The notes beneath the pieces are model-generated. The model made no database searches and was not told the DNA's origin. It saw only the letters and a program-made list of their open reading frames with translations. A program made the position numbers and the translations under genes. Below, piece by piece: positions 690 through 55,457 of a stretch of DNA of 64,000 nucleotides. The stretch lies in the NCBI GenBank assembly GCA_964187785.1, contig OZ076409.1, positions 75,084,001 through 75,148,000 on the forward strand, written 5' to 3'. Every line of letters starts with the position of its first letter. Position 1 is the first letter of the stretch. The DNA comes from Amphiscolops sp. MND2022 (taxonomy: Eukaryota).

Positions 690-870
690 GCTAAAGGTCA
701 GGAACTACGGTCTTTATCTTCCACAACACAAAAGGGATTGCAAATGGTTTCAGTTTGTCGCAGAAAATTTCTTTTTGCCCTCTGTGACTCGACAAAATGA
801 ACGTTTCTTACTTACTTTGAAACTCAGCCTACCACAACTCATCTCTAACGTCAGCGCCCCCCTACTTGCA

Positions 871-920
871 TCAACGCCCACCGTCCGTGGGCATGCCGAG
901 GCATGCCCTTCGACGACGTA
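871..920 (+). repeat. Conserved subterminal palindromic box (first of 39 intact or near-intact copies, one per unit end except unit 5)
   Basis: TCAACGCCCACCGTCCGT-GGGCATGCC-GA-GGCATGCCC-TTCGACGACGTA; 9-bp inverted repeat at 889-908, extendable by CGTC/GACG. Confidence 0.95.
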
Positions 921-954
921 TACCAAGATATACCTGGAGCGCGGTAGCCGCTAG

Positions 955-13300: not shown

Positions 13301-13458
13301 AGTTATTTTTTACCCCCTCTGACTCAACTATAGCATGTACGTAATGAAACCAATAACACCTTCAACTGTTAATCAACGCCCACCGTCCGTAGGCATGCCG
13401 AGGCATGCCTTTCGACGACGCGCGCCAAAAACAATATAACGGCGCCACCCGCTTCTGG
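10385..13458 (+). mobile_element. Unit 9, family D (3074 bp)
   Basis: Starts GTGGTCAGTGCTG, ends GCTTCTGG; full-length homology to units 30 and 31. Confidence 0.7.
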
Positions 13459-30803: not shown

Positions 30804-32080
30804 GTGGCCGGAAATTTTTTTTTTCAGCAAAATCTTTGCCATTGGGGGAGGGGCCCCGGATGGCCAGTAGTTCGGCTTGGCTACCTGCAAAATCAGGTAC
30901 AAAAAAACACGATCTCAAAATTGGCCCGTCAGAATTCGCTCATTTTTTGCATGCGGCCCTAGAATCAATATATAAGAACAAAGTCCTGCTGACGTTTTGC
31001 CGAAAAAACATTTTTTGTTGACCAAAAATAACATTTTTCATGCCAAAATGACCGTTTTTTCACATTTTTCAACTTTGAGAGCTCATATCTCGTTCCCAGG
31101 TGCCCGGAGCCGTTCGCACGTGAACTGCAATATTGCTCAGCGTTGTTAACGGAGTGCGTGGACAAATTTTGGTCCAAATCGGACTTAAACTCGGGGAGAT
31201 ATAAACGGATTTTTGGGAGTTTCCGGGGTAAATTTTTTAACGGTCCAGCTTATCTTTGCCATTTTTTGGAAAATGTACTCGCCTAAAGGCCTCCCCCTGG
31301 CCGAATTTACTCCCAGCAAAACCATTTGGCCCTAAATACGGAGTTTCAGCGTTCTAGCATTTCCGGGCGAAAAGTTGTGGGACTTAGAAAAAATTCAAAA
31401 TTTTTCAAAATTTTTTTTTCGTTTTCCGGCCCCCCAATGAAGGGGAACGACCCCCCAACTAGGATTTTTGGTGAATCCATGCGAAAAGGTCTTGTTTAGT
31501 GGAGAAAAATGCCGTTTAGAGCGACTTTTTATCTTAACTTGACGTTGACTTATGTCGTTTTGAATTTGATATTAGTATGTGTTGAGCATGTGAAAAGTTG
31601 AATATTTCAGTTGTTCTTTCGTGTTAGCCATTGAGATACAAGCTGTAGTGATCAAATTGTGATTTTTTGCAATTTCGTGGTGCTTTTGGTGTATTTTGAT
31701 TCTTTTGATAAAAAAGTTGTTCTTTATATATTGACAATTTTGGTGTATTGATTCAAATGAACATGAAACAGTTGAGTACATTTCATCTCCCTCTCGGGGG
31801 AGATGAGAATGTACTCGCTAAAGTCCTAGTACTATGACCCATTTTTGTTTTTATCAGACGCAGATACTGCCAACGGATACTTTTTGTTGGTGCAACTTTC
31901 CCCTGCACAATGTCTTTAGAAGCTAGAAAATTCTATGTCTCTAGCTTACTTCTCCTACAAATTCGTCACCAACGTCAACGCCACACACTCTCACTAACGC
32001 CCACCGTCTGTGGGCATGCCGAGGCATGCCCTTCGACGACGTATGCCAAATAGCGCCACAGGGCGCCCAATTTTGTCTAG
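30804..32080 (+). mobile_element. Unit 23, family A subtype A4 (1277 bp)
   Basis: Starts GTGGCCGGAAA; unit 3-like body; terminal hairpin GCGCC-ACAG-GGCGC before CTAG. Confidence 0.7.
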
Positions 32081-34258
32081 GTGGATGGTATTTTATAACA
32101 ATTAAAATGTTTTTTTCCGGAGTTTGTGGCTTTGGAAAAAACAAAAGGCGAGAAATTGGGCACTCCAGGCTGAACCTAAAAACACCCTAAAATTCGCCCG
32201 ATTTTTTTACGATCTCGAAACCCAACCGTACGATTTGGCTGAAAATTTGCATGTGGCTCCTAATCAATGAGTAATGAAAAAGTGTAGAAATGACTTTTCC
32301 TGGGAAAATTGTTTTTGTTGCACTTTTTGCGCAATTTTTGACCGATTGTTGCGTTTTTTATGTCACTTTTGACTTTTCAGGCAAAAAACTCATGGATGCT
32401 TTGATCCTAGCGCATCCAGTGTTTCGACCAAAAAGTTGCAGCATGTTCTTTTACGTATGTTGAGAAAATTTGGTTGCCATCGTATTACCCCCCACTGAGA
32501 TAGAGGGGGACTTCCGGTGGATTTTAGCACCCTAAAAACAAGGACCTCCTAAATTTCAGCATGAAGCGGTAGTTTTAGCGTGCTCATACCCTGCTGAAAC
32601 TTTGTTGGGCATAATGAGATTGTCCTGATATCATGTGTTCAGTTCACCCCCCATCACCCCCTGGACCGGAAATGAGCTTTTTTTGCACTATCATACCGGA
32701 AGTCTCCAATTTCACCGTTAAGCAGTCCTTGTACGAGCAACTACCAGGACATCAAAATTGAAGTACCACCTGAGGTCAACATAGTGACCACGTGTTGTCC
32801 AGTCATAGGTTCCGCTATGACCGGAAATGGGGTCAAAACCCCCTTTTTTGGTTGTTTTTTAACAATTTGACTAGTGTTTGGTCCACATTCAAGTCGCGTA
32901 AGTCAATTGAATCAGCGTGAGCATAAACTGTATGTTCACTGCGTAGACGTAACTGACACTGACAGATACCGGAAGTAACCCCCCGTGACCGGAAGTTGTC
33001 ATTTTTGACCGGAAATGGTCCAAAATGTACCGTAAAATCAGTTTTTCACTGCTTTTTAAAGTCAACTTATTACTTTTTCAATCTCCGCGAGCTTGTATTC
33101 AGGTTCGTTTTTGTTACCCGTGCACTTTGCAACAAGTATACATCTGTAAAATTTTCTCTATGATATCTTCGGATAGAGAAATAACATATTTTTGAGACTT
33201 TTTTCAAAAATATTAGACTATATCTGTCATTTTTACCCAAAGTTTTTCAACAGTACAACCACAGTGGTTAGTCTCTGCCCAAATTTATGCCTAACAAAAC
33301 TATTTGGCCCATTGGCCTCAGTTTGAGCGTTCCAGCTTTGCGTGATCATAAGCTAAGGGACATGAAAAATTTTCGAACTTTTTTCAAAAAAAAATCTCAC
33401 ATTCATGTCTCCCAAAGTGAAGAAACTTCCACACAACTAGGATTGCAAGTGGATGCCTGTGGCAAGCCCTATAATTGAAGAGAAAAATGCCGCTTAGAAC
33501 GTCTCTTTATCGTAACTTGACGTTAACGTATGGTGTTTTGAATGTGAGCTTGATAAGGCGTCGAGAAGTCAAAGTGTGTAAATGGAACGTACGTCTCGTC
33601 GAAAACTCATCGGAATTCATGCAATGAACCCCAATTGTCCTCAATGGCAGTTGCCTACTGCAACAACGTCTTTCTGGTACTTTTCACCCACTTTCATAAG
33701 TGTCAAAATTCTTTTTAAATTCAGTTAGCAAGAAGTACTTGAGTACATTTTCATCTCTCCCCAGCGGGTGAGATGAGAATGTTCTTGCTTAATGCCAGGT
33801 ACTACGGCCCCCTTTTGTTTTAATGCGACGCATTCTCTGCTTTAGCACATAGATATTTCATTTCGCCTGGTTTTTTGTATACTCTCTGACTTGTTATTAT
33901 AAAGTTCTCGTCATTACTTTACATAAATTTACAACCATAAATCGTTATCGGCAACGCCACATACATTTAGACGCCCACCATTCTGTAGGTATGTCGAGGC
34001 ATACCTTTCGATTACCTATGTCATAACGCAAACGCGATAAAAAGTGCTGAAATTCAGAAACAGTGAGAAACAATTTTCACTATTTGACATATGGTAGGTT
34101 TCTATAGGGAACTTACACATCACTGACATTTCACAACATTCCAGCTGACGCCCACATACCAACATCAACGCCCACCGTCCGTGGGCATGCCGAGGCATGC
34201 CCTTCGACGACGTATGCCAAATTTTTTAAAATCTACACCCAATTGCGGTAGCTGCTAG
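32081..34258 (+). mobile_element. Unit 24, family C (2178 bp)
   Basis: Starts GTGGATGGTATTTT; same length as and near-identical to units 29 and 33; carries relic and intact terminal boxes. Confidence 0.7.
33971..34012 (+). repeat. Relic second copy of the terminal box inside family C (also near 37565, 41130, 43305, 51637, 53811)
   Basis: ACGCCCACCATTCTGT-AGGTATGTC-GA-GGCATACCT-TTCGA, 196 nt upstream of the intact box at 34183-34202. Confidence 0.85.
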
Positions 34259-35646
34259 GTGGTTGGGGCGGTCCCCAGAACGCACAAGGAGGCGCGGGGA
34301 GGGTCCTGCGCCGACGTAGAATAATTTCATATAATACTAGTATCCTACATGGGTGTTTTAGAGGCGATTTTGGAATCTAACCGTAGGATTTGGATAATTT
34401 TTTGCATGCGGCCATAACTCGAAATTCTAAGAACTTTTTCCTACTGTCATTTTCCCCGCAAATTGTTTTTTGTTGACTTATGGCCGAAAAACCGGAAATA
34501 ACGTCCTTTTTAGACGTTATATCCGAAGTGTCGTCATAACTTTTTTCCAGGGCATGCTAGCGTTCTCGTTCACTTTTACACTTAGTTGCAGCATCTCAAA
34601 ATACAACTGGTGGAAAATTTTGGTTGCATTCGGATCACCCCCCACCGAGATAGAAGGGTTCCCCCCTCCAGTTTTACCCCCCAAATTTGCAAAATAGCCA
34701 ATTTTGAGCATGAAGCCGAGGATTTAGCGTACCCGCACCCTCCTGATGTTTTGTTGTACGTATTGGGGTCAATCTGACGACATGTGTGGTTTTCACCCCC
34801 AACCCCCCCTTGGACCGGAAATGACACTTTTTTGTGTTTTTTGGCAGAATTTAGCCTTTTTCATTATTAGGCAGTCGTTTTAGGGACTCCTAGCAGGATA
34901 TCGAAATTGAAATACAACCTGATCGCAACCCAGTGACAACATGTTGGCCACTTGGAGGTATCATCATGACCGGAAGTGGGGTCAACCCCCCTTTTTGTGA
35001 CCGCTTTTTGACCTTGTGCACCAAAATGCCAACATCTTGAGGCCTAATGAGGCATTCAAATCTGTACAAAGATAAAATGTTAGACAACCGAAGTCCCGGA
35101 AGATCTTTAGCATATACCGGAAGTTACCCCCCATGACCGGAAGTTACCCAATGTGACCGGAAATGGTCCAAAAATTAATGTAAAGTTGAATTTTTCACTA
35201 TTTCAAGACCACTTAATTGAAACTTTTCAATCTCAAAACTAGCGTACTGGCTTGTTTTGCCGAATTTATGGAAATTGATGAGCTCTATCGCCCCCGATAG
35301 CCTTCGAAGTTGACCTTGCGTCAACTTTGGAGGCTATCGATAAAGAAAAATGAACAACAAAGTACATTGTTGCTCTCGTTTTTTCCCGTTGTTTTTCCTC
35401 AAACATTCTTGAGACATATACATGGCCGTTAGTTGAAATCAATATTTAGCCCATGTTATAGCTGGAGCAGCGAAGCGTTACACAGACTAGTGTGGTTTTG
35501 AAATCACACTATTTAAATTAACAACTGACCGTCTTAGTCAACTCCACACATTCATACCAACGCTCACCGTCTGTGGGCATGCCGAGGCATGCCCTTCGAC
35601 GACGTATGACGAATCCACTCCAACGACACCCGCAGTCCTCAGCTAG
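34259..35646 (+). mobile_element. Unit 25, family B (1388 bp)
   Basis: Full-length homology to units 18 and 19. Confidence 0.7.
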
Positions 35647-37829
35647 GTGGAGGTTATTTTATAATAATTAAAGTGTTTTTTTCCGGAGTTTGTGGCTTTG
35701 GAAAAAACAAAAGGCGAGAAATTGGGCACTCCGGGCTGAACCGTAAAGGCCGATTTTATACTGTAAAAAACGCCCATTCTAACTACGATCTTGAAACCCA
35801 GCCGTACGTTTTTGCTGAAAATTTGCATGCGGCTACAAAATCAGATTCTAAGAACTTTTTTCTGCTGACTTTTTTTTGGAATTTTTTTGTACGTTTCCCC
35901 CCCGCCCCCTAAAGGGGTCAATTTTCCCCAATTTTGTACTTATGAGTCATATTCTCAAAACTGGTTGATCTGAGAGCAATCCTTGTGGAGAGAACTTTTG
36001 TAGAGCGCTCTTCAGTTGACTTTTTGGAGTTTTTACTTTGGTGGTACGTTCACCCCCCACAGCGGAAATAGCGTTTTTGTAACTTCCGGTCGAGCAATTT
36101 TCCACCCAAAAATTAGAATTATGCCAGTTTAGAGCACGAAGCAGTAGTTTTAGCGTGTTCATACTCTCCTGAAGTTTTGTTGGGCGTATTGAGGTAGACA
36201 TGATATCAAGTGTTCAGTTCACCCCCATCACCCCCTGGACCGGAAATGAACTTTCTTTTTTCCCCTTTCTTACAGGAAGTGTCGATTTTCACCGATAAGG
36301 AGTCCTTGTACGAGCAACTAGCAGGGCATCAAAATTGACGTACCACCTGGGGTCAACTTAGTGACCACGTGTTGTCCAGTCATGGGTACCGCCATGACCG
36401 GAAATGGGGTCAAAACCCCCCTTTTAGTTGTTATTTTATCAATTTGACTAGTGTTTGGTCCACATTCAAGTCGCGTAAAACAATTGAACCTGTGTGAGCA
36501 TAAACTGCATGTTCACTGCGTAGACGTAACAGACACTGCCAGATACCGGAAGTAACCCCCGTGACCGGAAGTTGTCATTTTTGACCGGAAATGGTCCAAA
36601 AAATAGCGTAAATGCAGTTTTTCACTGCTTTTTAAGGTCAAGTTATTACTTTTTTCAATCTGCACGAGCTTGTCTTCAGGTTCGCTTTTGTTACCCGTGC
36701 ACAGCGCAACAAATATACATCTGTAAAATTTTCTCTATAATATCGTCGGAGAGAGAAATAACGGGTTATTGGGGCTTTTTTTCAAAAATATTAGTCTATA
36801 TCTGTAATTTTTGTCCAAAGTTATTCAACAGTACTACCACAGAGGTTAGTCTCTGCCCAAATACATGCCTAACAAAACTACTTGTCACATTCGTCTCAGT
36901 TTGAGCGCTCCAGCTTTGCCTGGTCATAAGTTAAGTGACATAGAAAATTTTCATTTTTTTTCAAAAAAAATTTCTCGCCTTCAGTTCCTCCAAAGTAAAG
37001 AAACTTCCACACAACTAGGATTGCAAGTGGATGCATGTGGCAAGCCCTATAATTGAAGCACAAAAAACCGCTTAGGACGTCTCTTTATCGTAATTTGACG
37101 TTAACGTATGGTGCTTTGAATGAGAGCTTGCTAAGGGGTCGAGAAGTCAAAGTATGTAAATGGAACGTATGTCTCGTCGAAAAGTCATCGGAATACATGC
37201 AATGAACCCCAATTGCCCTCAATTGCAGCTGCCTAGTGCAACAACGTCTTTCAGGGACCTTTAACCTATTTTTATTAGTGTCAAAACTATTTTAAATTCA
37301 GTTAGCAAGAAACACTTGAGTGCATTCTCATCTCTCCCCAGCGGGTGAGATGAGAATGTTCTTGCTAAAAGCCAGGTACTACGGCCCACTTTTGTTTTAA
37401 TGCGACGCATTCTCTGCTTTAGCACATAGATATTTTTATTTCGCCTGATTTTCTGTATACACTCTGACTTGTTATTATGAGTTCCTCGTCATTACTTTAC
37501 ATAAATTTACAATCATCAAACGTTATCGTCAACGCCATATAGATTTAGGCGCCCACCATTCCGTAGGTATGTCCAGGCACACTTTTCGATTACGTATGTC
37601 AAAACGCAAACGCGATAAAAAGTGCTAAAATTCAGAAACAGTGACAAACAAATTTGACTATTTGACATATGGGAGGTTTTCATATGGAACTTACACATAG
37701 CTGACATTTCACTACATTGCAGCTGACGCCCACATACCAACATCAACGCCCACTGTCCGTGGGCATGCCGAGGCATGCCCTTCGACGACGTATGGCAATT
37801 ACCTTCCACCGACGCGCACTCTCCCCTAG
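35647..37829 (+). mobile_element. Unit 26, family C variant (2183 bp)
   Basis: Starts GTGGAGGTTATTTT like unit 32; C-type body; ends CTCTCCCCTAG. Confidence 0.7.
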
Positions 37830-39218
37830 GTGGTTGGGGCGGTCCCCAGAACGCACAAGGAGGCGCGGGGAGGGTCCTGCGCCGACGTAGAATAATTTCA
37901 TATAATACTAGTATCCTACATGGGTGTTTTAGAGGCGATTTTGGAATCTAACCGTAGGATTTGGATAATTTTTTGCATGCGGCCATAACTCGAAATTCTA
38001 AGAACTTTTTCCTACTGTCATTTTCCCCGCAAATTGTTTTTTGTTGACTTATGGCCGAAAAACCGGAAATAACGTCCTTTTTAGACGTTATATCCGAAGT
38101 GTCGTCATAACTTTTTTCCAGGGCATGCTAGCGTTCTTCTTCACTTTTACACTTAGTTGCAGCATCTCAAAATACAACTGGTGGAAACTTTTGGTTGCAT
38201 TCGGATCACCCCCCACCGAGATAGAAGGCTTCCCCCCTCCAGATTTACCCCCCAAATTTGCAAAAAAAGCCAATTTTGAGCATGAAGCCGAGGATTTAGC
38301 GTACCCGCACCCTCCTGATGTTTTGTTGTACGTATTGGGGTCAATCTGACGACATGTGCGGTTTTCACCCCCAACCCCCCCTTGGACCGGAAATGACACT
38401 TTTTTGTGTTTTTTGGCAGAATTTAGCCTTTTTCATTATTAGGCAGTCGTTTTAGGGACTCCTAGCAGGATATCGAAATTGAAATACAACCTGATCACAA
38501 CCCAGTGACAACATGTTGGCCACTTGGAGGTATCATCATGATCGGAAGTGGGGTCAACCCCCCTTTTTGTGACCGCTTTTTGACCTTGTGCACCAAAATG
38601 CCAACATCTTGAGGCCTAATGAGGCATTCAAATCTGACAAAGATAAAATGTTAGACAACCGAAGTCCCGGAAGATCTTTAGCATATACCGGAAGTTACCC
38701 CCCATGACCGGAAGTTACCCAATGTGACCGGAAATGGTCCAAAAATTAATGTAAAGTTGAATTTTTCACTATTTCAAGACCACTTAATTGAAACTTTTCA
38801 ATCTCAAAACTAGCGTACTGGCTTGTTTTGCTGAATTTATGGAAATTGATGAGCTCTATCGCCCCCGATAGCCTTCGAAGTTGACCTTGCGTCAATTTTG
38901 GAGGCTATCGATAAAGAAAAATGAACAACAAAGTACATTGTTGCTCTCGTTTTTTTCCCGTTGTTTTTCCTCAAACATTCTTGAGACATATACATGGCCG
39001 TTAGTTGAAATCAATATTTAGCCCATGTTATAGCTGGAGCAGCGAAGCGTTACACAGACTAGTGTGGTTTTGAAATCACACTATTTAAATTAACAACTGA
39101 CCGTCTTAGTCAACTCCACACATTCATACCAACGCCCACCGTCTGTGGGCATGCCGAGGCATGCCCTTCGACGACGTATGACGAATCTAATCCAACGACA
39201 CCCGCAGTCCTCAGCTAG
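37830..39218 (+). mobile_element. Unit 27, family B (1389 bp)
   Basis: Near-identical to unit 18, different neighbours. Confidence 0.7.
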
Positions 39219-41398
39219 GTGGATGTTATTTTATAATAATTAAAGTGTTTTTTTCCGGAGTTTGTGGCTTTGGAAAAAACAGAAGTCGAGAAATTTGGCA
39301 CTCCAGGCTGATCCTGTCTAGTCCAAAATATACTATCAAAAATGACCCATTTTTCTCCGATCTCGAAACCCAACCGTAGGATTTGGCTGAAAATTTGCAT
39401 GTGGCTCCAAGTCAATGAGTGATGAAAAAGTGTAGAAGTGACTTTTCCTGGGAAAATTGTTTTTGTTGCACTTTTTGCGCAATTTTTGGCCGATTGTTGC
39501 GTTTTTTATGTCACTTTCGACATTTCCGGCAAAAAACTCATGGATGCTTTGATCCTAGCGCATCAAGTGTTACGACCAAAAAGTTACAACATGTTCTTTT
39601 ACGTATGCTGAGAAAATTTGGTCGCAATCGTATTACCCCCCACTGAGATAGAGGGGAACTTCCGGTGGATTTTAGCACCCTGAAAACGAGGACCTCCTCA
39701 ATTTCAGCAGGAAGCGGTAGTTTTAGCGTTCTCATACCCTGCTGACGTTTTGTTGGGCATATTGAGTTAGTCATGATATCATGTGTTCAGTTCACCCCCC
39801 ATCACCCCCTGGACCGGAAATGAACTTTTTGTGCACTATCATACCGGAAGTCTCCAATTTCAACGTTAAGCAGTCCTTGTACGAGCAACTACCAGGACAT
39901 CAAAATTGAAGTACCACCTAAAGTCAATGCAGTGACTACGTGTTGTCCAGTCATAGGTTCCGCAATGACCGGAAATGGGGTCAAATCCCCCTTTTTTGTT
40001 GCTTTTTAACAATTTGACTAGTGTTTGGTCCACATTCAAGTCACATAATTCAATTGAACCAGTGTGAGCATAAACTGTATGTTCACTGCGTAGACGTAAC
40101 TGACACTGACAGGTACCGGAAGTAACCCCCCCATAACCGGAAGTTGTCATTTTTGACCGGAAATGGTCCAAAATGTAGCGTAAAATCAGTTTTTCACTGC
40201 TTTTTGAAGTCAATTTAATTCATTTTCAATATTGGCGAGCTTGTATTCATGTTCGTTTTTGTTACCCGTGCACTTTGCAACAAATATACATCTGTAAAGT
40301 TTTCTCCATAATATCTTCGGATAGAGAAATAACGTGTTTTCGGGACTTTTTTCAAAAATATTACACTATATCTGTCATTTTTACCCAACGTTTTTCAACA
40401 GTACAACCACAGTGGTTAGTCTCTGCCCAAATGTATGCCTAACAAAACTATTTGGCCCATTGACCTCAGTTTGAGCGTTCCAGCTTTGCGTGGTCATAAG
40501 CTAAGGGACTTGAAAAATTTTCAAACTTTTTCAAAAAAACAATTTCTCACCTTCATGTCTCCCAAAGTAAAGAAACTTCCACACAACTAGGATTGAAAGT
40601 GGATGCATGTGACAAGCCCTATAATTAAAGAAAAAAATGCCACTAAGAACGTCTCTCTATCGTAACTTGATGTTAACGTATGATACTTTGAATGAGAGCT
40701 TGATAAGAGGTCGAGAAGTCAAAGTGTGTAAATGGAACGTATGTCTCGTCGAAAACTCATCGGAATACGTTCAATGAACCCCAATTGTCCTCAATTGCAG
40801 ATGCCTAGTGCAACACCGTCTTTCAGGGACATTTTACACAATTCCATAAGTGTCAAAATTATTTTTAAATTCAGTTAGCAAGAAACACTTGAGTACATTC
40901 TCATCTGTCCCCAGCGGGTGAGATGAGAATGTTCCTGCTAAAAACTAGGTACTACGGCCCACTTTTGTTTTGTTGCGACGCATTCTCTGCTTTACCACAT
41001 ATATATATTTATTTCTCCTGATTTTTTGTACACACTCTAACTTGTTATTATAAACTTCTCGTCATTACTTTACATAAATTTACAACGTTATCGTCAACGC
41101 CACATACATTTAGACGCCCACCATTCCGTAGGTATGTCGAGGCATACCTTTGATTACATGTCAAAACGCAAACGCGATAAAAAATGCTGAAATTCAGAAA
41201 CAGTGACAAACGATTTTGACTATTTGAAGTATGGTAGGTTTTTTTATGGAACTTACACATCACTGACATTTCACAACATTCCAGCTGACGCCCACATACC
41301 AACATCAACGCCCACCGTCCGTGGGCATGCCGAGGCATGCCCTTCGACGACGTATGCCAATTTATTTCATATCTACACCCAACCGCGGTAGCAGCTAG
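39219..41398 (+). mobile_element. Unit 28, family C (2180 bp)
   Basis: Diverged full-length relative of unit 24. Confidence 0.7.
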
Positions 41399-43576
41399 GT
41401 GGATGGTATTTTATAACAATTAAAATGTTTTTTTCCGGAGTTTGTGGCTTTGGAAAAAACAAAAGGCGAGAAATTGGGCACTCCAGGCTGAACCTAAAAA
41501 CACCCTAAAATTCGCCCGATTTTTTTACGATCTCGAAACCCAACCGTACGATTTGGCTGAAAATTTGCATGTGGCTCCTAATCAATGAGTAATGAAAAAG
41601 TGTAGAAATGACTTTTCCTGGGAAAATTGTTTTTGTTGCACTTTTTGCGCAATTTTTGACCGATTGTTGCGTTTTTTATGTCACTTTTGACTTTTCAGGC
41701 AAAAAACTCATGGATGCTTTGATCCTAGCGCATCCAGTGTTTCGACCAAAAAGTTGCAGCATGTTCTTTTACGTATGTTGAGAAAATTTGGTTGCCATCG
41801 TATTACCCCCCACTGAGATAGAGGGGGACTTCCGGTGGATTTTAGCACCCTAAAAACAAGGACCTCCTAAATTTCAGCATGAAGCGGTAGTTTTAGCGTG
41901 CTCATACCCTGCTGAAACTTTGTTGGGCATAATGAGATTGTCCTGATATCATGTGTTCAGTTCACCCCCCATCACCCCCTGGACCGGAAATGAGCTTTTT
42001 TTGCACTATCATACCGGAAGTCTCCAATTTCACCGTTAAGCAGTCCTTGTACGAGCAACTACCAGGACATCAAAATTGAAGTACCACCTGAGGTCAACAT
42101 AGTGACCACGTGTTGTCCAGTCATAGGTTCCGCTATGACCGGAAATGGGGTCAAAACCCCCTTTTTTGGTTGTTTTTTAACAATTTGACTAGTGTTTGGT
42201 CCACATTCAAGTCGCGTAAGTCAATTGAATCAGCGTGAGCATAAACTGTATGTTCACTGCGTAGACGTAACTGACACTGACAGATACCGGAAGTAACCCC
42301 CCGTGACCGGAAGTTGTCATTTTTGACCGGAAATGGTCCAAAATGTACCGTAAAATCAGTTTTTCACTGCTTTTTAAAGTCAACTTATTACTTTTTCAAT
42401 CTCCGCGAGCTTGTATTCAGGTTCGTTTTTGTTACCCGTGCACTTTGCAACAAGTATACATCTGTAAAATTTTCTCTATGATATCTTCGGATAGAGAAAT
42501 AACATATTTTTGAGACTTTTTTCAAAAATATTAGACTATATCTGTCATTTTTACCCAAAGTTTTTCAACAGTACAACCACAGTGGTTAGTCTCTGCCCAA
42601 ATTTATGCCTAACAAAACTATTTGGCCCATTGGCCTCAGTTTGAGCGTTCCAGCTTTGCGTGATCATAAGCTAAGGGACATGAAAAATTTTCGAACTTTT
42701 TTCAAAAAAAAATCTCACATTCATGTCTCCCAAAGTGAAGAAACTTCCACACAACTAGGATTGCAAGTGGATGCCTGTGGCAAGCCCTATAATTGAAGAG
42801 AAAAATGCCGCTTAGAACGTCTCTTTATCGTAACTTGACGTTAACGTATGGTGTTTTGAATGTGAGCTTGATAAGGCGTCGAGAAGTCAAAGTGTGTAAA
42901 TGGAACGTACGTCTCGTCGAAAACTCATCGGAATTCATGCAATGAACCCCAATTGTCCTCAATGGCAGTTGCCTACTGCAACAACGTCTTTCTGGTACTT
43001 TTCACCCACTTTCATAAGTGTCAAAATTCTTTTTAAATTCAGTTAGCAAGAAGTACTTGAGTACATTTTCATCTCTCCCCAGCGGGTGAGATGAGAATGT
43101 TCTTGCTTAATGCCAGGTACTACGGCCCCCTTTTGTTTTAATGCGACGCATTCTCTGCTTTAGCACATAGATATTTCATTTCGCCTGGTTTTTTGTATAC
43201 TCTCTGACTTGTTATTATAAAGTTCTCGTCATTACTTTACATAAATTTACAACCATAAATCGTTATCGGCAACGCCACATACATTTAGACGCCCACCATT
43301 CTGTAGGTATGTCGAGGCATACCTTTCGATTACCTATGTCATAACGCAAACGCGATAAAAAGTGCTGAAATTCAGAAACAGTGAGAAACAATTTTCACTA
43401 TTTGACATATGGTAGGTTTCTATAGGGAACTTACACATCACTGACATTTCACAACATTCCAGCTGACGCCCACATACCAACATCAACGCCCACCGTCCGT
43501 GGGCATGCCGAGGCATGCCCTTCGACGACGTATGCCAAATTTTTTAAAATCTACACCCAATTGCGGTAGCTGCTAG
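41399..43576 (+). mobile_element. Unit 29, family C (2178 bp)
   Basis: Appears identical to unit 24 by eye. Confidence 0.7.
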
Positions 43577-46500
43577 GTGGTCAGTGCTGTTGCGTTCATT
43601 TTTTTCCGGCCGTGGGGGAGGGCCCCTCTGAGGCCGGTCATTTTTCAGGTAACAGCTTTCTTATACAAAAAAGCGGGAAAAAACCTCAGTGCTCAAATCC
43701 CAACCGTCAGAATGAGCTGAAATTTGGCATGTAGCTAGTGCATTGCAAATGATTAGGATGGGTTATAACGCTATGTTTGGCAAAATTGGTTTTGTTGCAT
43801 TTTTTTTGTCATATAGGGCCAAAAATGGCCTTTTTTGCGTATTTTTTGCTTGACTAGCTAATAACTCGCGTTGGGTTGGTACTAGCGATACGGGTGTGGG
43901 GTATGGAATTGTAAGAATACCAAGTACCTTGCTGATCACGTTTTTTGATTTCCGCTCACATCACCCCCCGCGCCGGAAATGCCCAGTTTGTCACTTCCGG
44001 TCGCAATTTTTGACTTTTTTGGATGGAGTCAAAACCCATTTCCGGTGTGAAGGAGTGGGTTGAGCGCTTCGACCCCAATATACTAAAAGTAGGTTTAGAC
44101 AAAGTCCTATTAGGAAAAAAGTAACGTAAGCCCGTACCTATCACCCCCTCACCGGAAATAGGGGTCACGCCTCCTTTTTCTGTGTTGCAAAAGTGACATG
44201 TGCACATTTGTCCAACTCCGAAGCCCCGGAGCACTGTGGGACCCTTATACTTTCTAAACACCTATCCCACACGCTACCGGAAGTGACCGGAAGTTTCACC
44301 GGAAATGACATCCTTGGACCGGAAATGGTCAAAAAAGGACTTTTTCAATAAAAAATAGACACTTTTGGTGCAATTTTTAGGCAAAAAGCATAATTCGTGA
44401 TACGCTTGTTGCAGTTGAAAGGGCCATTGTTCAGCAAGAATGCATACAGCATTACGTAGCACATCAAGTGGTTGATAATTTTTCGTCCATAATATCCATA
44501 GAACCGGAAATGGCCATTTTTGAATCGGAAATTTCTTCAGCTTGATTTTTAACAAGTTTTTCCACAATATTAGTGTAGGAATTGCTCGTCGGATGCTTTA
44601 GGTCTATTTTAAAATTAGCTAACTGCTTCTTAGAAATGTATTTCAGAAATCCCAACCAGTTCCAGATTACCGGAAATGGGAGTAATTGCCTCCTTTATGA
44701 CCTTTGAATGATAAATTGTTAAAATCCGCAATTTATTTTATTCCACAACTGTTGCTCAGGTTATATCTAAGCAATAACATCTGCTTGTTTTGAAGTGCTG
44801 TATTGTGGGAGATACAAATATTGCTTTTTAATAGTAATACATACGTGATATTCGCCGCAATAAAGATTTTTCAAATCAACCATTTTGAAGTCCTACTGGT
44901 GTTCCGCACACCCGAAATAATTTAAGTTTCTAGTTTCGATTTTCAGGCTTCCGCGACTATTGAGTTGAGATGATAGTTTTCACGTTCTCTGCAAAACGGG
45001 CATTTCATTGTGTATGTGACATTTATTGGGTTGTTTCACATGGTAATTCAAAACTAATTGATCATACAATTTAGAACAATTGAAAATTTTCAATTGAACA
45101 ATAAATGTTTTAATAATTTTTCTTTCGTTAAAGATACTCTTTTGTGGCCATTAGAACAGGTTGAATTGGTTGAATAAGTAACCAGTGCGATACATCGTTT
45201 AATACATAGCGTTTGACATCGTTTTCTTGCGAACAAAGACAGGCATGATTTGTTGGAAGTTTTTACCATATCGCTTCAAATCGGTCGTGACAAACAATGA
45301 ATTTCTCGTTTTAATTGCTACTTCGAAAGCAGCCTGAAAACGCAAATCGATATATTGAGTTATGGAGATGCAACTAAGCATTTCCAGTCTGGGTTTCAAT
45401 TTAATTCTATCACTCCGGACTACTTTTATGTCGCAAAAGTGATAAAGGGTGTTAGCAAGGTTAAAAACATCGAACAATTTTAAAAATAATGCCTCCGGAA
45501 AGGGAAGAAAATTGAGTTTTCATGTCAAAACAATGATAACCACGTACGAAACATCAAGTATTTGTATTGTTCAATAGTCCAAAACATGAATGAAGTTTTT
45601 AAATATCCAAGAGTTTCTAATCAAGCATGCGTTTCAAATGTCTCACAGGGCAGCATCGTTTTCAAAAAACATTGCTTTCAATGTGGTTTCATACCAGCAA
45701 AACGAACGCAGGCACAACCACATTCTCAAAATTCTTGCACAACAACCAATTTCTTTGGAAATCCTGTTTGATTCCTCACGGTATATGGTGAGAACCCTGT
45801 TGGGTTCCAAAGTTGATGTGCTGTTTTCTTGGGTTTGCGAGATAAGTTACAACGGAAATCTGAAAGCAGGTCGTCTCAATAAAATACCTGTTGCTCTTTA
45901 AACGATTGGACTTAAGTAGTCGAAATTTATTCTCAGACACTTTCGATCAGAGAATGTTTGAGTCCTAACGTTCGAATCAGGTTGGTTTCAGGTGGCTCGA
46001 AGTGCCAGCTGAACCAACCTTTCAAATAAAGAAAAACCCCACACCTCCCTTCATGCCACGCTACCCCGTATAGCGTTTCAACTTGACAGAAATTGGAACC
46101 TTTGATTTTGGCGTCGCTTGGGATTGACACACCAGTGTTGATACTAAATTTGGCAAAGAGAAATCGCAGAAGGGATTGTTTCTGTTTTTCCCTTTGATTT
46201 AATGTGTCGAGCGTACAAAGCAGTTTGGGAAACTAACTTGCATTTCCACTGAACGAAAAGCAAAAGTAGTAACATTGAAAACTTCCGGAAAAAATTTAAT
46301 CAGGTTTCCGTATTTGTGAGATCAGCTGCCACTCAGTTATCAGTTACACCTTTCAAATTTTTAAGAACAACTAATCTAACTTTGCTCGACTCTCTTGGAT
46401 AAGGCAACAATAGTTTACTAATCTGTACTCGTGGAAAAAAGTCAACTGCCGGGTCAAAAACAATCTGTATGTAACTTTTCTCTCGTGCAAAGTTATTTTT

Positions 46501-46648
46501 TACCCCCTCTGACTCAACTATAGCATGTACGTAATGAAACCAATAACACCTTCAACTGTTAATCAACGCCCACCGTCCGTAGGCATGCCGAGGCATGCCT
46601 TTCGACGACGCGCGCCAAAAACAAATTAACGGCGCCACCCGCTTCTGG
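43577..46648 (+). mobile_element. Unit 30, family D (3072 bp)
   Basis: Full-length homology to unit 9; CTGG end. Confidence 0.7.
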
Positions 46649-49600
46649 GTGGTCAGTGCTGTTGCGTTCATTTTTTTCCGGCCGTGGGGGAGGGCCCCTC
46701 TGAGGCCGGTCATTTTTCAGGTAACAGCTTTCTTATACAAAAAAGCGGGAAAAAACCTCAGTGCTCAAATCCCAACCGTCAGAATGAGCTGAAATTTGGC
46801 ATGTAGCTAGTGCATTGCAAATGATTAGGATGGGTTATAACGCTATGTTTGGCAAAATTGGTTTTGTTGCATTTTTTTTGTCATATAGGGCCAAAAATGG
46901 CCTTTTTTGCGTATTTTTTGCTTGACTAGCTAATAACTCGCGTTGGGTTGGTACTAGCGATACGGGTGTGGGGTATGGAATTGTAAGATTACCAAGTACC
47001 TTGCTGATGACGTTATTTGATTTCCGCTCACATCACCCCCCACGCCGGAAATGCCCAATTTGTCACTTCCGGTCGCAATTTTTGACTTTTTTGGATGGAG
47101 TTAAAACCCATTTCCGGTGTGAAGGAGTGGGTTGAGCGCTTCGACCCCAATATACTAAAAGTAGGTTTAGACAAAGTCCTTCAAAGAAAAAAATAATGTG
47201 AGCCCGCACCTATCACCCCCTCACCGGAAATAGGGGTCACGCCTCCTTTTTCTGTGTTGCAAAAGTGACATGTGCACATTTGTCCAACTCCGAAGCCCCG
47301 GACCACCGTGGGACCCTTATACTTTCTAAACACCTATCCCACACGCTACCGGAAGTGACCGGAAGTTTCACCGGAAATGACATCCCCGGACCGGAAATGC
47401 TCAAAAAATGACTTTTTCAATACAAAATAGACACTTTTGGTGCAATTTTTAGGCAAAAAGCATAATTCGTGATACGCTTGTTGCAGTTGAAAGGGCCATT
47501 GTTCAGCAAGAATGCCTACAGCATTACGTAGCACATCAAGTAGTTGAAAATTTTTCGTCCATATTATCCATAGGACCGGAAATGGCCATTTTTGAATCGG
47601 AAACTTCTTCAGCTTGATTTTTAACAGGTTTTTCCACAATATTAGCGTAGGAATTGCTCGTCGGATGCTTTAGGTCTATTTTAAAACTAGCTGACTGCTT
47701 CTTAGAAATGTATTTCAGAAATCCCAACCAATTCCAGATTACCGGAAATGGGAGTAATTGCCTCCTTTATGACCTTTGAATGATAAATTGTTAAAATCCG
47801 CAAATTATTTTATTCCACAACTGTTGCTCAGGTTATATCTATGCAATAACATCTGCTTGTTATGAAGTGCTGTAATGTGGGAGCTACAAATATTGCTTTT
47901 TAATAGTAATACATACGTGATATTCGCCGCAATAAAGATTTTTCAAATCAACCATTTTGAAGTCCTACTGGTGTTCCGCACACCCGAAATAATTTAAGTT
48001 TCTAGTTTCGATTTTCAGGCTTCCGCGACTATTGAGTTGAGATGATAGTTTTCACGTTCTCTGCAAAACGGGCATTTCATTGTGTATGTGACATTTATTG
48101 GGTTGTTTCACATGGTAATTCAAAACTAATTGGTCATACAATTTAGAACAATTGAAAATTTCCAATTGAACAATAAATGTTTTAATAATTTCTCTTTCGT
48201 TAAAGATACTCTTTTGTGGCCATTAGAACAGGTTGAATTGGTTGAATAAGTAACCAGTGCGATACATCGTTTAATACATAGCGTTTGACATCGTTTTCTT
48301 GCGAACAAAGACAAGCATGATTTGTTGGAAGTTTTTACCATATCGCTTCAAATCGGTCGTGACAAACAATGAATTTCTCGTTTTAATTGCTACTTCGAAA
48401 GCAGCCTGAAAACGCAAATCGATCTATTGAGTTATGGAGATGCAACTAAGCATTTCAAGTCTGGGTTTCAATTTAATTCTATCACTCCGGACTATTTTTA
48501 TGTCGCAAAAGTGATAAAGGGTGTTAGCAAGGTTAAAAACATCGAACAATTTTAAAAAAAATGCGTCCGGAAAGGGAAGAAAATGAGTTTTCCTGTCAAA
48601 ACAATGATAACCACGTACGAAACATCAAGTATTTGTATTGTTCAATAGTCCAAAACATGAATGAAGTTTTTAAATATCCAAGAGTTTCTAATCAAGCATG
48701 CGTTTCAAATGTCTCACAGGGCAGCATCGTTTTCAAAAAACAGTGCTTTCAATGTGCTTTCATACCAGCAAAACGAACGCAGGCACAACCACATTCTCAA
48801 AATTCTTGCACAACAACCAATTTCTTTGAAAATCATATTTGATTCCTCAAGGTATATGGTGAGAACCCTGTTGGGTTCCAAAGTTGATGTGCTGTTTTCT
48901 TGGTTTGCGAGATAAGTTACAACGGAAATCTGAAAGCAGGTCGTCTCAATAAAATACCTGTTGCTCTTTACACGATTGGACTTAAGTAGTCGAAATTTAT
49001 TCTCAGACACTTTCGATCAGAGAATGTTTGAGTCCTAACGTTCGAATCAGGTTGGTTTCAGGTGGCTCGAAGTGCCAGCTGAACCAACCTTTCAAATAAA
49101 GAAAAACCCCACACCTCCCTTCATGCCACGCTACCCCGTATAGCGTTTCAACTTGACAGAAATTGGAACGTTTGATTTTGGCGTCGCTTGGGATTGACAC
49201 ACCAGTGTTGATACTAAATTTGGCAAAGAGAAATCGCAGAAATGATTGTTTCTGTTTTTCCCTTTGATTTAGTGTGTCGAGCGTACAAAGCAGTTTGTGA
49301 AACTAACTTGCATTTCCACTGAACGAAAAGCAAAAGTAGTAACATTGAAAACTTCCGGAATAAATTTAATCAGGTTTCCGTATTTGTGAGATCAGCTGCC
49401 ACTCAGTTATCAGTTACATCTTTCAAATTTTTAAGAACAACTAATCTAACTTTGCTCGACTCTCTTGGATAAGGCAACAATAGTTTACTAATCTGTACTC
49501 GTGGAAAAAAGTCAACTGCCGGGTCAAAAACAATCTGTATGTAACTTTTCTCTCGTTCAAAGTTATTTTTTACCCCCTCTGACTCAACTATAGCATGTAC

Positions 49601-49718
49601 GTAATGAAACCAATAACACCTTCAACTGTTAATCAACGCCCACCGTCCGTAGGCATGCCGAGGCATGCCTTTCGACGACGCGCGCCAAAAACAATATAAC
49701 GGCGCCACCCACTTCTGG
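46649..49718 (+). mobile_element. Unit 31, family D (3070 bp)
   Basis: Full-length homology to units 9 and 30; CTGG end. Confidence 0.7.
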
Positions 49719-51904
49719 GTGGAGGTTATTTTATAATAATTAAAGTGTTTTTTTCCGGAGTTTGTGGCTTTGGAAAAAACAAAAGGCGAGAAATTGGGCA
49801 CTCCGGGCTGAACCGTATACACTCAAAATTCGCCCAATATTTATACGATCTCGAAACCCAGCCGTACGATTTGGCTGAAAATTTGCATGCGGCTAAAAAA
49901 TCAGATTCTAAGAACTATTTCCTGCTGACATTTTTTTGAAATTTTTGTGTACGTTTCCCCCCCGCCCCCTAAAGGGGTCAATTTTCCCCAATTTTGCACT
50001 TATGAGCCAAATTCTCAAAACTGGTGGATCTGAGCGTATTCCCGGCGGGGACAACTTTTAACGCGCGCTCCTCAGTAGACCTTTTTGACTTTTAACTTTG
50101 GTGGTACGTTCACCCCCCGAGGAGGAAATGGCGTTTTTGTGACTTCCGGTCGAGGCTTTTTTCACCCAAAAAATAGAATTAAGCCAACTTTGAGCAGGAA
50201 GGAGTGGATTTAAAGTGCCTGTACCCTGCTAAAAATTTGTTGGGCTTGTAGCGATATATCTCATACCAAGTCTGGTTTTCACCCCCAAACCCCCCTTGGG
50301 ACCAAAATTCACCCAAACTTTTTTTACCTCTGTTTGTAGTTTTTTTTGCAAAATGTCGTCATTTCCATGGGTAAGGAGTTGAATTAGGGGCTCCTAATAG
50401 GGTACCAATGTTCAAGTACACTTGCAGTGCAACTGAGTGACCCTTTTGGGGCCTCTCCTGTGTTCGGCGAGGACCGGAAGTGGTGTAAACCCCCCTTTTT
50501 TGACGTTTGTTGACCTTGAGACTCGCGCTTAGATGACGTTTATGTCGCGCAAATCCTACAAACCAGTATTAGGATGACATGCTAGCCTACTAGAGAGCAC
50601 TAAGGGAAACTATACTATACCGGAAGTAACCCCCCGTGACCGGAAGTTGTCATTTTTGACCGGAAATGGTCCAAAACATAGCGTAAAAGCAGTTTTCATT
50701 GCTTTTAAAGTCAACTTATTACCTTTTCAGTCTGCGCGAGCTTGTCTTCAGATTCGTTTTTGTTGTCCGTGCACACTACAACAAATATACATCTGTAGAA
50801 CTTTTGCTATAATATCGTCGGAGAGAGAAATAACGGGTTTTCGGAATTTTTTTCAAAAATGTTTGTCTATATCTATCATTTTTACCCAACGTTATTCAAC
50901 AGTAGAACCACAGGGGTTAGTATCTGCCAAAATATATGCCTAACAAAACCACTCGTCCCATTGGTTGCAGTTTGAGCGTTCTAGCTTTGCCTGGTCACAA
51001 GTTGAGGGACTTCAAAAAGTTTCAAATTTTTTTGAAAATTTTTTTTTAAACGTCACGTCTCCCAAAGTTAAGAATTTTCCACACAACTAGGATTGCAAGA
51101 GAATGCACATGGTAAGACCTATAAATCGAGAGAAAAATTCCGTTCAGAACGTCTCTTTATCGTTACGTGACGTTAAAAGATGTTGCTTTGAATGTGAATT
51201 TGATAATGCGTCGAGAAGTAAAAGAGTGTGAATGGATCCTATGTCTCGACAAATACTCATCGCAATACATACGATGAACCCCAATTACCCTCACTTTCAG
51301 TTGGCTAGTACATCAGCGTCTTCCAAGGACCGTTTACCTATTTAAAAATTGTCAAATTCATTATTAATATCAGTTAGCAAGAAATATTTGAGTACATTGT
51401 CATCTCTCCCCATCGGGTGAGATGAGAATGTTCTTGCTAAAAGTCAAGTACTACGGCCCATTTTTGTTTTATTGCGACGTTTTCTGTGCCTTAGCACAAG
51501 GATACTTTTATGTCATCTCACTTTTGTTATACAATCTGACTTGTTGTTATAAAATTCTCGTCATTACTTTACCTAAACCTACTACCATGCATCTTTAACG
51601 TCAAAGCCAAATTCATTTAGACGCCCACCATTCCGTAGTTATGCCGAGGTATGCCTTTCGAAGAAGTATGGCAAAACACAAACGGGCAAATGAAAAGGGC
51701 TGAAATTCAGAAACAGTCACAAACAATTTTGACTATTTGACCGATGGTAGGTTTTTATATGGAACTTACACATCACTGACATTTCAAAACATTCCAGCTG
51801 ACGCCCACTTACAAACATCAACGCCCACGGTCCGTGGGCATGCCGAGGCATGCCCTTCGACGACGTATGGCAAATACCTTTTACGACGTCCCAACTTTCC
51901 CTAG
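49719..51904 (+). mobile_element. Unit 32, divergent family C variant (2186 bp)
   Basis: Head like unit 26; most diverged C body; box and CTAG end. Confidence 0.7.
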
Positions 51905-54082
51905 GTGGATGGTATTTTATAACAATTAAAATGTTTTTTTCCGGAGTTTGTGGCTTTGGAAAAAACAAAAGGCGAGAAATTGGGCACTCCAGGCTGAACC
52001 TAAAAACACCCTAAAATTCGCCCGATTTTTTTACGATCTCGAAACCCAACCGTACGATTTGGCTGAAAATTTGCATGTGGCTCCTAATCAATGAGTAATG
52101 AAAAAGTGTAGAAATGACTTTTCCTGGGAAAATTGTTTTTGTTGCACTTTTTGCGCAATTTTTGACCGATTGTTGCGTTTTTTATGTCACTTTTGACTTT
52201 TCAGGCAAAAAACTCATGGATGCTTTGATCCTAGCGCATCCAGTGTTTCGACCAAAAAGTTGCAGCATGTTCTTTTACGTATGTTGAGAAAATTTGGTTG
52301 CCATCGTATTACCCCCCACTGAGATAGAGGGGGACTTCCGGTGGATTTTAGCACCCTAAAAACGAGGACCTCCTAAATTTCAGCATGAAGCGGTAGTTTT
52401 AGCGTGCTCATACCCTGCTGAAACTTTGTTGGGCATAATGAGATTGTCCTGATATCATGTGTTCAGTTCACCCCCCATCACCCCCTGGACCGGAAATGAG
52501 CTTTTTTTGCACTATCATACCGGAAGTCTCCAATTTCACCGTTAAGCAGTCCTTGTACGAGCAACTACCAGGACATCAAAATTGAAGTACCACCTGAGGT
52601 CAACATAGTGACCACGTGTTCTCCAGTCATAGGTTCCGCTATGACCGGAAATGGGGTCAAAACCCCCTTTTTTGGTTGTTTTTTAACAATTTGACTAGTG
52701 TTTGGTCCACATTCAAGTCGCGTAAGTCAATTGAATCAGCGTGAGCATAAACTGTATGTTCACTGCGTAGACGTAACTGACACTGACAGATACCGGAAGT
52801 AACCCCCCGTGACCGGAAGTTGTCATTTTTGACCGGAAATGGTCCAAAATGTAGCGTAAAATCAGTTTTTCACTGCTTTTTAAAGTCAACTTATTACTTT
52901 TTCAATCTCCGCGAGCTTGTATTCAGGTTCGTTTTTGTTACCCGTGCACTTTGCAACAAGTATACATCTGTAAAATTTTCTCTATGATATCTTCGGATAG
53001 AGAAATAACATATTTTTGAGACTTTTTTCAAAAATATTAGACTATATCTGTCATTTTTACCCAAAGTTTTTCAACAGTACAACCACAGTGGTTAGTCTCT
53101 GCCCAAATTTATGCCTAACAAAACTATTTGGCCCATTGGCCTCAGTTTGAGCGTTCCAGCTTTGCGTGATCATAAGCTAAGGGACATGAAAAATTTTCGA
53201 ACTTTTTTCAAAAAAAAATCTCACATTCATGTCTCCCAAAGTGAAGAAACTTCCACACAACTAGGATTGCAAGTGGATGCCTGTGGCAAGCCCTATAATT
53301 GAAGAGAAAAATGCCGCTTAGAACGTCTCTTTATCGTAACTTGACGTTAACGTATGGTGTTTTGAATGTGAGCTTGATAAGGCGTCGAGAAGTCAAAGTG
53401 TGTAAATGGAACGTACGTCTCGTCGAAAACTCATCGGAATTCATGCAATGAACCCCAATTGTCCTCAATGGCAGTTGCCTACTGCAACAACGTCTTTCTG
53501 GTACTTTTCACCCACTTTCATAAGTGTCAAAATTCTTTTTAAATTCAGTTAGCAAGAAGTACTTGAGTACATTTTCATCTCTCCCCAGCGGGTGAGATGA
53601 GAATGTTCTTGCTTAATGCCAGGTACTACGGCCCCCTTTTGTTTTAATGCGACGCATTCTCTGCTTTAGCACATAGATATTTCATTTCGCCTGGTTTTTT
53701 GTATACTCTCTGACTTGTTATTATAAAGTTCTCGTCATTACTTTACATAAATTTACAACCATAAATCGTTATCGGCAACGCCACATACATTTAGACGCCC
53801 ACCATTCTGTAGGTATGTCGAGGCATACCTTTCGATTACCTATGTCATAACGCAAACGCGATAAAAAGTGCTGAAATTCAGAAACAGTGAGAAACAATTT
53901 TCACTATTTGACATATGGTAGGTTTCTATAGGGAACTTACACATCACTGACATTTCACAACATTCCAGCTGACGCCCACATACCAACATCAACGCCCACC
54001 GTCCGTGGGCATGCCGAGGCATGCCCTTCGACGACGTATGCCAAATTTTTTAAAATCTACACCCAATTGCGGTAGCTGCTAG
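51905..54082 (+). mobile_element. Unit 33, family C (2178 bp)
   Basis: Differs from units 24 and 29 by only a few substitutions seen by eye. Confidence 0.7.
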
Positions 54083-55457
54083 GTGGTCGGGGCGGTCCCC
54101 AGAACGCACAAGGAGGCGCGGGGAGGGTCCTGCGCCGACGTAGAATAATTTCATATAATACTAGTATCCTACATGGGTGTTTTAGAAGCGATTTTGGAAA
54201 CTAACCGTAGGATTTGGATAATTTTTGCATGCGGCCTTAACTCGAAATTCTAAGAACTTTTTCCTATTGTCATTTTCCCCTCAAATTGTTTTGTGTTGAC
54301 TTATGGCCGAAAAACCGGAAATAACGTCCTTTTTAGACGTTATATCCGAAGTGTCGTCATAACTTTTTTCCAGGGCATGCTAGCGTTCTTGTTCACTCTT
54401 ACACTTAGTTGCAGCATCTCGAAATACAACTGGTGGAAAATTTCGGTTGCATTCGGATCACCCCCCACCGAGATACAAGGGTTCCCCCCTCCAGTTTTAC
54501 CCCCCAAAATTGCAAAAAAGCCAATTTTGAGCATGAAGCCGAGGATTTAGCGTACCCGCACCCTTCTGATATTGTGTTGTAAGTATTGGGGTCAATCTGA
54601 CCACATGTGTGGTTTTCACCCCCAACCCCCCCTGGGACCGGAAATGACACTTTTTTGTGTTTTTCGGCAGAAATTAGCTTTTTTCATTAGTAGGCAGTTG
54701 TTTTAGGGACTCCTAGCAGGATATCGAAATTGAAATACAACCTGATCACAACCCAGAGACAACATGCTGGCCATTTGGAGGTACAATCATGACCGGAAGT
54801 GGGGTCAACCCCCCTTTTTGTGACCGCTTTTTGACCTCGTGCACCAAAATGCCAACAACTTGAGGCCTAATGACGCATTCAAATATGTACAATGAAAGAA
54901 AGTTAGACAACCGAAGTCCCGGAAGATCTTTAGCATATACCGGAAGTTACCCCCCATGACCGGAAGTTACCCAATGTGACCGGAAATGGTCCAAAAACTA
55001 TTACAAAGTTAATTTTTTCACATTTCGTTGAACATTTTCAATCCCAAAACTAGCGTAATGGCTTGTTTTGCTGAATTTATGGAAATTGGTCAACTCTATC
55101 ACCCCCGATAGCCTTCGAAGTTGACCTTGCGTCAACTTTGGAGGCTATCGATTCTGAAAATGAACAACAAAGTACACTATTGCTCTCGTTTTTTTCTGTT
55201 GTTTTTCTTCAAACATTCTTGAGACATATTCATGGCCGTTAGTTGAAATCAAAAATTTAGCCCATGTTATGGCGGGAGTAGCGAAGCGTTACACAGGCTA
55301 GTGTGGTTTTGAAATTACAATATTTAAAATAACAAATGACCGTCTTAGTCAACGCCACACTTTCATACCAACGCCCACCGTCTGTGGGCATGCCGAGGCA
55401 TGCGTTTCGACGACGTATGCCAAATCCACCCTTCCGACGCCCGCAGTCCTCAGCTAG
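54083..55457 (+). mobile_element. Unit 34, divergent family B (1375 bp)
   Basis: B-type body with more substitutions; box right arm mutated (GGCATGCGT). Confidence 0.7.

Follow-up and report, generated by a model that had tools for sequence, protein, structure and literature searches.

Positions 75,084,001 to 75,148,000 of contig OZ076409.1 from Amphiscolops sp. MND2022, a stretch of 64,000 nt referred to here as the window, form a gapless head-to-tail array of gene-less mobile cassettes, the young copies of which are bounded by a short junction, CTRG/RTG (the slash marks the joint). Insertion of single units precisely at this junction is well supported, and we hold it with high confidence. 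The units themselves are probably non-autonomous Helitron-like elements that insert at each other's junctions by means of a transposase encoded elsewhere.

The array comprises 41 non-coding units (39 complete), all on the + strand, with lengths from 1.07 to 3.07 kb and belonging to about 13 families. It continues beyond both window ends, and not a single base falls outside the units, so that neither spacer nor host DNA separates them. From unit 1 to unit 41 the families read AEEAGMFHDIJAAAAAABBEBKLCBCBCCDDCCBFAAAAAA, where the letters are our own labels and the numbers follow the 41-unit split of an earlier annotation made from the letters alone (the original prediction); positions 4789-7124 hold two units. 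The window has a G+C content of 41.6% and shows no depletion of CpG (observed/expected 0.97). The window contained no open reading frame of 150 amino acids, no Rfam family, no tRNA gene and no telomeric repeat of the four types tested, and there was no sign of young copies clustering at one of its ends. Neighbours belonged to the same family at 15 of the 40 junctions, compared with 6.2 by shuffling (p = 7e-5), and the similarity between neighbours was raised equally for heads and tails (0.654 versus 0.58). The array and the units referred to below are:

1..64000, + strand: whole array, 41 units with 40 CTRG/RTG junctions, gapless and non-coding
4789..5858, + strand: unit 5, without box; its head motifs are the shared ones, its body is unrelated and it ends in CTAG/GTG
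10385..13458, + strand: unit 9, family D, 98.6% identical to unit 30
16044..23803, + strand: first block of six A-family units, mosaic inside
23804-25192, + strand: unit 18, family B
32081..34258, + strand: unit 24, family C, 2178 bp, equal to unit 29, 3 differences from unit 33
34259..35646, + strand: unit 25, family B, 98.8% identical to units 18 and 27
35647..37829, + strand: unit 26, C variant and chimera, resembling unit 32 in its 5' part and about 89% identical to unit 24 in its 3' part
37830..39218, + strand: unit 27, family B, 1 difference from unit 18
39219..41398, + strand: unit 28, family C, 91% identical to unit 24
41399..43576, + strand: unit 29, family C, 2178 bp, identical to unit 24
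43577..46648, + strand: unit 30, family D, CTGG end
46649..49718, + strand: unit 31, family D, CTGG end
49719..51904, + strand: unit 32, divergent or chimeric C variant
51905..54082, + strand: unit 33, family C, 2178 bp
56730..64000, + strand: second block of six A-family units, the last partial, mosaic inside

The joint is preceded by CTRG at all 40 junctions (37 CTAG and 3 CTGG). Thirty-nine junctions follow a conserved 3' box and read CTAG/GTGG (21), CTAG/GTGC (14), CTGG/GTGG (3) or CTAG/ATGG (1), and the fortieth, at 5858, closes the box-less unit 5 with CTAG/GTG. The + strand has 41 copies of the junction 7-mer, of which 40 lie at junctions, and the - strand has four; its sole CTAG/ATG form lies at 8394-8400, between units 7 and 8. 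Heads read GTGG, GTGC or ATGG, and shifting the cut by one base would give a TG start. Given that the R of CTRG goes with the left unit (CTGG closes all three D units) and that base +4 belongs to the right one, the crossover or cut is bracketed within G-R-T-G, and the elements may run RTG..CTRG or TG..CTRGR. The identity boundary at CTRG/RTG proposed in the original prediction was recovered near the junction, with the cut itself placed only within these four bases. GGTG can be read as a terminal direct repeat at 39 of the 40 junctions; the CTR part belongs to the left unit, the repeat is at most 4 bp long, and no duplication beyond the ambiguous G-R-T-G was seen at the junctions.

Of the 40 units with their 3' end inside the window, 39 carry the conserved box, and behind every terminal box come a variable tail and then CTRG/RTG. 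It was found 43 times on the + strand (39 terminal and 4 degenerate internal copies) and never on the - strand. In 39 of the 40 ends a 20-nt palindrome stops 43-56 nt short of the junction, and folding of the ends gave a second small hairpin in some tails only. Head motifs, among them M1, are common to all aligned families, and an internal inverted repeat, H1, is common to most. Terminal inverted repeats were absent from the 7 units examined, and comparison of each head with the reverse complement of its tail gave p<0.05 in 2 of 18 units, with no common match. Subterminal inverted repeats were looked for as well and not detected. Unit 5 lacks the box and has exact junctions, so the box is dispensable at a junction; this unit is possibly a separate family using the same junction. 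An imperfect inverted repeat found by eye at 5793-5830 may replace its box, although the fold did not choose it. The ends and motifs of unit 24 serve as examples:

32077..32083, + strand: left-hand junction of unit 24, CTAG/GTG; the match with units 29 and 33 starts at 32077
32226..32251, + strand: conserved 5' motif M1, found at about +120 to +155 in all aligned families and in the box-less unit 5
33741..33784, + strand: internal inverted repeat H1, common to most families at about 300 nt before the end, and farther from it in family C because of an added 3' end
33987..34020, + strand: degenerate second box that lies 196 bp before the terminal one and represents a nested 3' end in family C
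34163..34216, + strand: conserved 3' box of unit 24, with the 20-nt palindrome at 34183-34202
34255..34261, + strand: junction at the right end of unit 24

The original prediction held that near-identical cassettes recur with different neighbours and that identity stops at the junction, and the comparison of young copies bears this out. Units 24, 29 and 33, each of 2178 bp, have the coordinates and neighbours claimed for them and differ pairwise at 0, 3 and 3 columns. Units 2 and 20 (4 differences in 1280) and units 18 and 27 (1 in 1389) likewise lie in the differing contexts described, and units 13 and 39 differ at 6 positions in 1290. Fourteen pairs share at least 97% identity; they derive from 5 groups of copies and are thus non-independent. 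In 13 of them exact identity ends 1-7 nt to the left and 4-6 nt to the right of the junction. The exception, units 13 and 39, extends 109 nt to the left (12 nt to the right) because their neighbours share the common A tail. None of the 28 flanks of these pairs has neighbours that are also at least 97% identical, and 12 of the 14 pairs are non-adjacent. Unit 21 is excluded from the set by an internal duplication of 282 bp, yet its head and tail show the same pattern; this duplication, at 28070-28647 in a B unit, is a perfect tandem one.

Recording where the self-comparison diagonals end, as had been proposed, gave the same picture: of the 62 ends of 31 diagonals (at least 600 bp and 97% identity), 33 are no more than 12 nt away from a junction, where 1.6% would be expected. 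When the array was set against a segmental-duplication model, a toy tandem version never yielded both zero co-duplicated flanks and 12 of 14 non-adjacent pairs in up to 3,000 runs for each of 5 mean segment lengths. Among 37 pairs with the same head, the unit's own tail is shared in 24 and the upstream neighbour's tail in 4; outside family A the counts are 19 and 2 of 27. Exchange or assembler switching in the box would carry the upstream tail along; that the tail behind the box instead stays with its own unit speaks against both box-to-box recombination and misassembly. Families C, B, E and A all contain copies less than 0.5% apart, a near identity that points to recent activity, as the original prediction had proposed.

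Sequences related to the units were found in one further place. Motif scans of metagenome contigs gave a single match, L001, of 1,172 bp, which contains a unit end (box and tail), a CGAG/GTG joint at 880-886 and a related head in the same order as in the window. Local matches of its bodies to units of the window show about 70-80% identity, and its head shares 27 of 27 bases with positions 33-59 of unit 35. From this order of box, tail, junction and head, the tandem arrangement appears not to be peculiar to the window, on the evidence of one junction that lies off the CTRG rule. Motif scans of viral contigs and of prokaryote genomes gave no match, and neither did a blastn search of one junction region against plasmids and phages. 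The lack of genes, together with the lack of matches among prokaryotes, phages and plasmids, points to a eukaryotic host. Among sequencing runs, one carried a small share (0.08) and no RNA run was listed; the short pieces were uninformative on the junctions.

In the mechanism that we propose, a RepHel-type HUH enzyme would nick the 5' end of a unit within G-R-T-G and peel off one strand; peeling would stop at the palindrome and CTRG, and the circle would close with a joint equal to the array junction. The enzyme would then nick a resident junction as if it were its own origin, and strand transfer would attach the head of the incoming unit to the CTRG end upstream and its tail to the displaced head, turning one junction into two with nothing gained or lost. 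Each insertion would retain its target and add another, so that the array would grow from within and in a single orientation. The head would be the more likely target signal, because the box-less unit 5, which shares only head motifs, has exact junctions. Homologous recombination between similar units would subsequently create chimeras and may amplify blocks such as A. In Helraiser, circles have exact end-to-end joints and serve as donors (PMC5876387), and a nested 3' end is expected from 3'-end read-through (PMC4778049). The decayed upstream box of family C is what bypass of an old 3' end and its replacement by a new one would be expected to leave. More speculatively, and with low confidence, the units may represent a eukaryotic rolling-circle lineage that does without random host targets and takes its own end-to-end junction as a dedicated attachment site. 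Its interchangeable non-coding cassettes would form arrays like those of integrons, and such an array would be a safe harbour of the elements' own making that a sequence-specific HUH integrase would grow and shuffle one unit at a time.

Several observations weigh against precise insertion of Helitron-like units as a full account of the array. Three of the 31 diagonals extend more than 100 nt beyond a junction, and 1 of the 62 diagonal ends (units 1 versus 4) stops just behind the box; the original prediction had named these two outcomes as speaking against it, and neither is routine. Most of the remaining diagonal ends fall inside units, and A-family units switch nearest relative along their length, with breakpoints within units being common. 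In two of the crossing diagonals (units 24+25 versus 33+34 and 12+13 versus 38+39) identity drops from above 99% to about 94-96% across the junction, which identifies the neighbours as family members and not as co-duplicates. The third (36+37 versus 40+41; 98% over 1,240 bp) is centred on the junction with both ends inside units, and looks like ordinary recombination. Units 26 and 32 of family C are chimeric. The crossing diagonals, A mosaics, C chimeras and excess of same-family neighbours indicate that unit insertion is overlaid by homologous recombination and perhaps also by local amplification or by a preference for insertion next to kin. The earlier claim that the single unit is what moves therefore holds for the youngest copies, whose cut lies at the junction rather than at the box, but unit movement is not the sole process.

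Other points on the same side concern the enzyme and the ends. No RepHel transposase or remnant was detected in the window by the open reading frame check or by Pfam, the latter covering 97 stop-to-stop frames of at least 62 amino acids from 12 of the 40 units, none of which reached the cut-off; weak matches in 6 of the 97 frames were all below curated cut-offs and none was transposase-like. Within the 64-kb sequence no array end, empty site or circle was seen. Compensatory changes in the box stem, with A-T in place of G-C in 6 of 15 rows and T-A in place of C-G in 2 of 15, favour the Helitron-like reading, yet they may stem from few events or from template switching and are no proof of function. 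The L001 junction reads CGAG in place of CTRG, and the G-R-T-G bracket also fits a 4-bp direct repeat of the Crypton type. The 5' end is RTG or TG, so that the test for the TC start of HLE1 elements failed; the palindrome lies 43-56 nt from the end, compared with about 11 nt in Helraiser; and no A-T target is visible at the junctions, where the cut falls between G and R or between R and T.

Described HLE1 elements run from TC to a hairpin followed by CTRR and use A-T targets, whereas HLE2 elements carry terminal inverted repeats and insert between T and T (PMC11417382). The units resemble Helitrons at the 3' end, with a palindrome followed by CTRG, a sequence that agrees with CTRR at 40 of 40 junctions. 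They further share with HLE1 (Helraiser/Helibat; PMC4778049, PMC5876387, PMC11417382) the absence of terminal inverted repeats, exact end-to-end joints and fixed orientation, as well as nested 3' ends and chimeric non-autonomous families. They differ from it in sitting at the ends of other units and not at host A-T sites. The short asymmetric terminal inverted repeats of HLE2/Helentron/HINE elements were not found here, and junction base counts gave neither T-T insertion nor T-rich ends. In view of the failed TC, target and inverted-repeat tests, we do not file the units under HLE1 or HLE2 and describe them as HLE1-like in the working of their 3' end.

Exact end-to-end joining of dissimilar elements has precedents in the maize r1 region, where a head-to-tail Helitron pair was read as consecutive insertions (Du et al. 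2008, PMC2267711), and in Metarhizium, with three tandem Helitrons (PMC5148889). These cases comprise 2-3 elements, the maize joints (CTAG/TC) being treated as occasional, whereas the present array has at least 41 units of about 13 families over at least 64 kb without host DNA. Plant rolling-circle arrays are likewise long and head-to-tail but are described as concatemers of truncated copies, often with many 5' ends and one 3' end (Xiong et al. 2016, via the review PMC12628747); the present array consists of complete units, most neighbours differ in family, and the most similar copies usually do not lie side by side. Telomere-targeted, oriented Helitrons of Paramecium (PMC13085455) have non-canonical termini, a specific target and an absolute orientation bias as well, but their copies are flanked by the telomeric-repeat target, whereas in the window the junction is the target, with no spacer and no telomeric repeat. 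Other published cases are arrays of 2-7 copies in Xenopus (PMC12001565), subtelomeric expansions of Helitron-like elements in Hydractinia (PMC11934779), Helitrons lying between the centromeric arrays of Meloidogyne (PMC13404089) and dimers formed through double insertion in Drosophila (10.1101/158386). Integration by the TrwC relaxase into oriT (PMC3264647) belongs to a bacterial plasmid conjugation system and is cited as an analogy only. We found no multi-family array of tens of complete units with such non-TC ends and free of host DNA in literature that lacked most subscription papers and Repbase, which makes this weak support for novelty.

The enzyme is the point at which alternatives come closest to the Helitron-like reading. 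Integrons are polarised cassette arrays that are shuffled one cassette at a time, and circles integrated by a tyrosine recombinase through crossover in the short direct repeat GGTG, in the manner of integrons or Cryptons, would give an exact and polarised array such as the one seen here, with a crossover anywhere in G-R-T-G allowed by the data. Cryptons lack terminal inverted repeats and have terminal direct repeats of 4-6 bp, and circle formation has been proposed for them (PMC3212892). We nevertheless regard this as unlikely: the two inverted arms of 11-13 bp around a 6-8 bp core were not found (2.2-3.9 of 13 matches over 24 core placements, approximately chance), and folding of 16 window ends and L001 gave no conserved attC-like hairpin across the junction. 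Moreover, family D always keeps the R of CTRG on the left unit, the hairpin-plus-CTRG end is Helitron-like, copy number increases without visible loss, and the window holds gene-less cassettes and no recombinase. That a different or undescribed enzyme is at work (a Replitron-like Rep, another HUH group or a host-domesticated protein), with the likeness to Helitrons being convergent, seems to us rather unlikely too. The termini match neither HLE1 nor HLE2 as defined above, and Replitron-1 inserts behind RG in fixed orientation (PMC10288648), which fits the RG preceding the head at every junction. Replitrons, however, carry a Y1 Rep and 6-bp terminal direct repeats, compared with at most 4 bp here and none beyond G-R-T-G, and have been reported from algae, plants and stramenopiles (PMC10288648); the protein evidence, with no such protein among the 97 frames, speaks neither for nor against this explanation.

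The remaining alternatives dispense with a current transposase altogether. Turnover of the satellite type, by unequal crossing-over, gene conversion and homology-driven circle reinsertion on an old transposon-derived array, would account for the mosaic A units in two blocks of six, the 98% diagonal of 1,240 bp centred on a junction with its ends inside units, the divergence of units 1 and 4 just behind the box, the C-B order that occurs three times and the surplus of same-family neighbours. Exchange by homology should, however, switch in the common box of about 50 nt and take the upstream tail with it, whereas the tail stays with its own unit. Homologous recombination needs more than 7 bp, and the junction is therefore too short for it. 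The box-less unit 5 with its exact junctions and the failed tandem-duplication simulation are further points against it, and the co-duplication of several units typical of satellite higher-order repeats was seen at 0 of 28 flanks at 97%, with 3 of 31 diagonals crossing a junction. As a sole cause this turnover is quite improbable; it probably acts as a secondary process. An assembly artefact, in which collapsed repeat units were shuffled by the assembler, is hardly credible. In its favour, units 24 and 29 match at 100% along all 2,178 bp and sequencing reads gave only short contig pieces, none spanning the array, but an assembler would switch in the longest shared exact word, which is the box, and not in a 7-base joint; in addition, most young pairs carry 1-6 private differences and the same architecture is present in the independent contig L001.

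Target choice and joining are the least understood steps of rolling-circle transposition. If the units are Helitron-like elements inserting at each other's junctions, the 40 exact junctions and the families with copies 0-6 bases apart predict a specific target and a recently active enzyme, which would make the integration step testable. The array would then represent a route from transposons to long heterochromatin-type arrays that involves neither concatemer replication nor unequal crossing-over, and a eukaryotic HUH enzyme capable of scarless integration of kilobase cassettes at a defined site would be of interest for genome engineering. Such elements would be missed by tools that demand TC starts or terminal inverted repeats.

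Further regularities were noted within the array. The motif ACCGGAAR recurs at a spacing of about 155-185 bp in families B, C and D (32663-33018, 34491-35167 and 44310-44679), like decayed internal tandem repeats, and is absent from families A, E and F. Motif M1 and the internal spacing of 150-170 bp may resemble features of non-autonomous Helitrons of insects and bivalves. A C unit is followed by a B unit three times in 32081-55457 (units 24-25, 26-27 and 33-34), the B partners not being co-duplicates, and this recurrent order may reflect an older dimer or a target preference. Both F units, which are 92% alike, lie upstream of six-A blocks (7125-23803 and 55458-64000), the first with four other units in between; the order of the A units is not collinear, and the arrangement is possibly an old block duplication later split by insertions.

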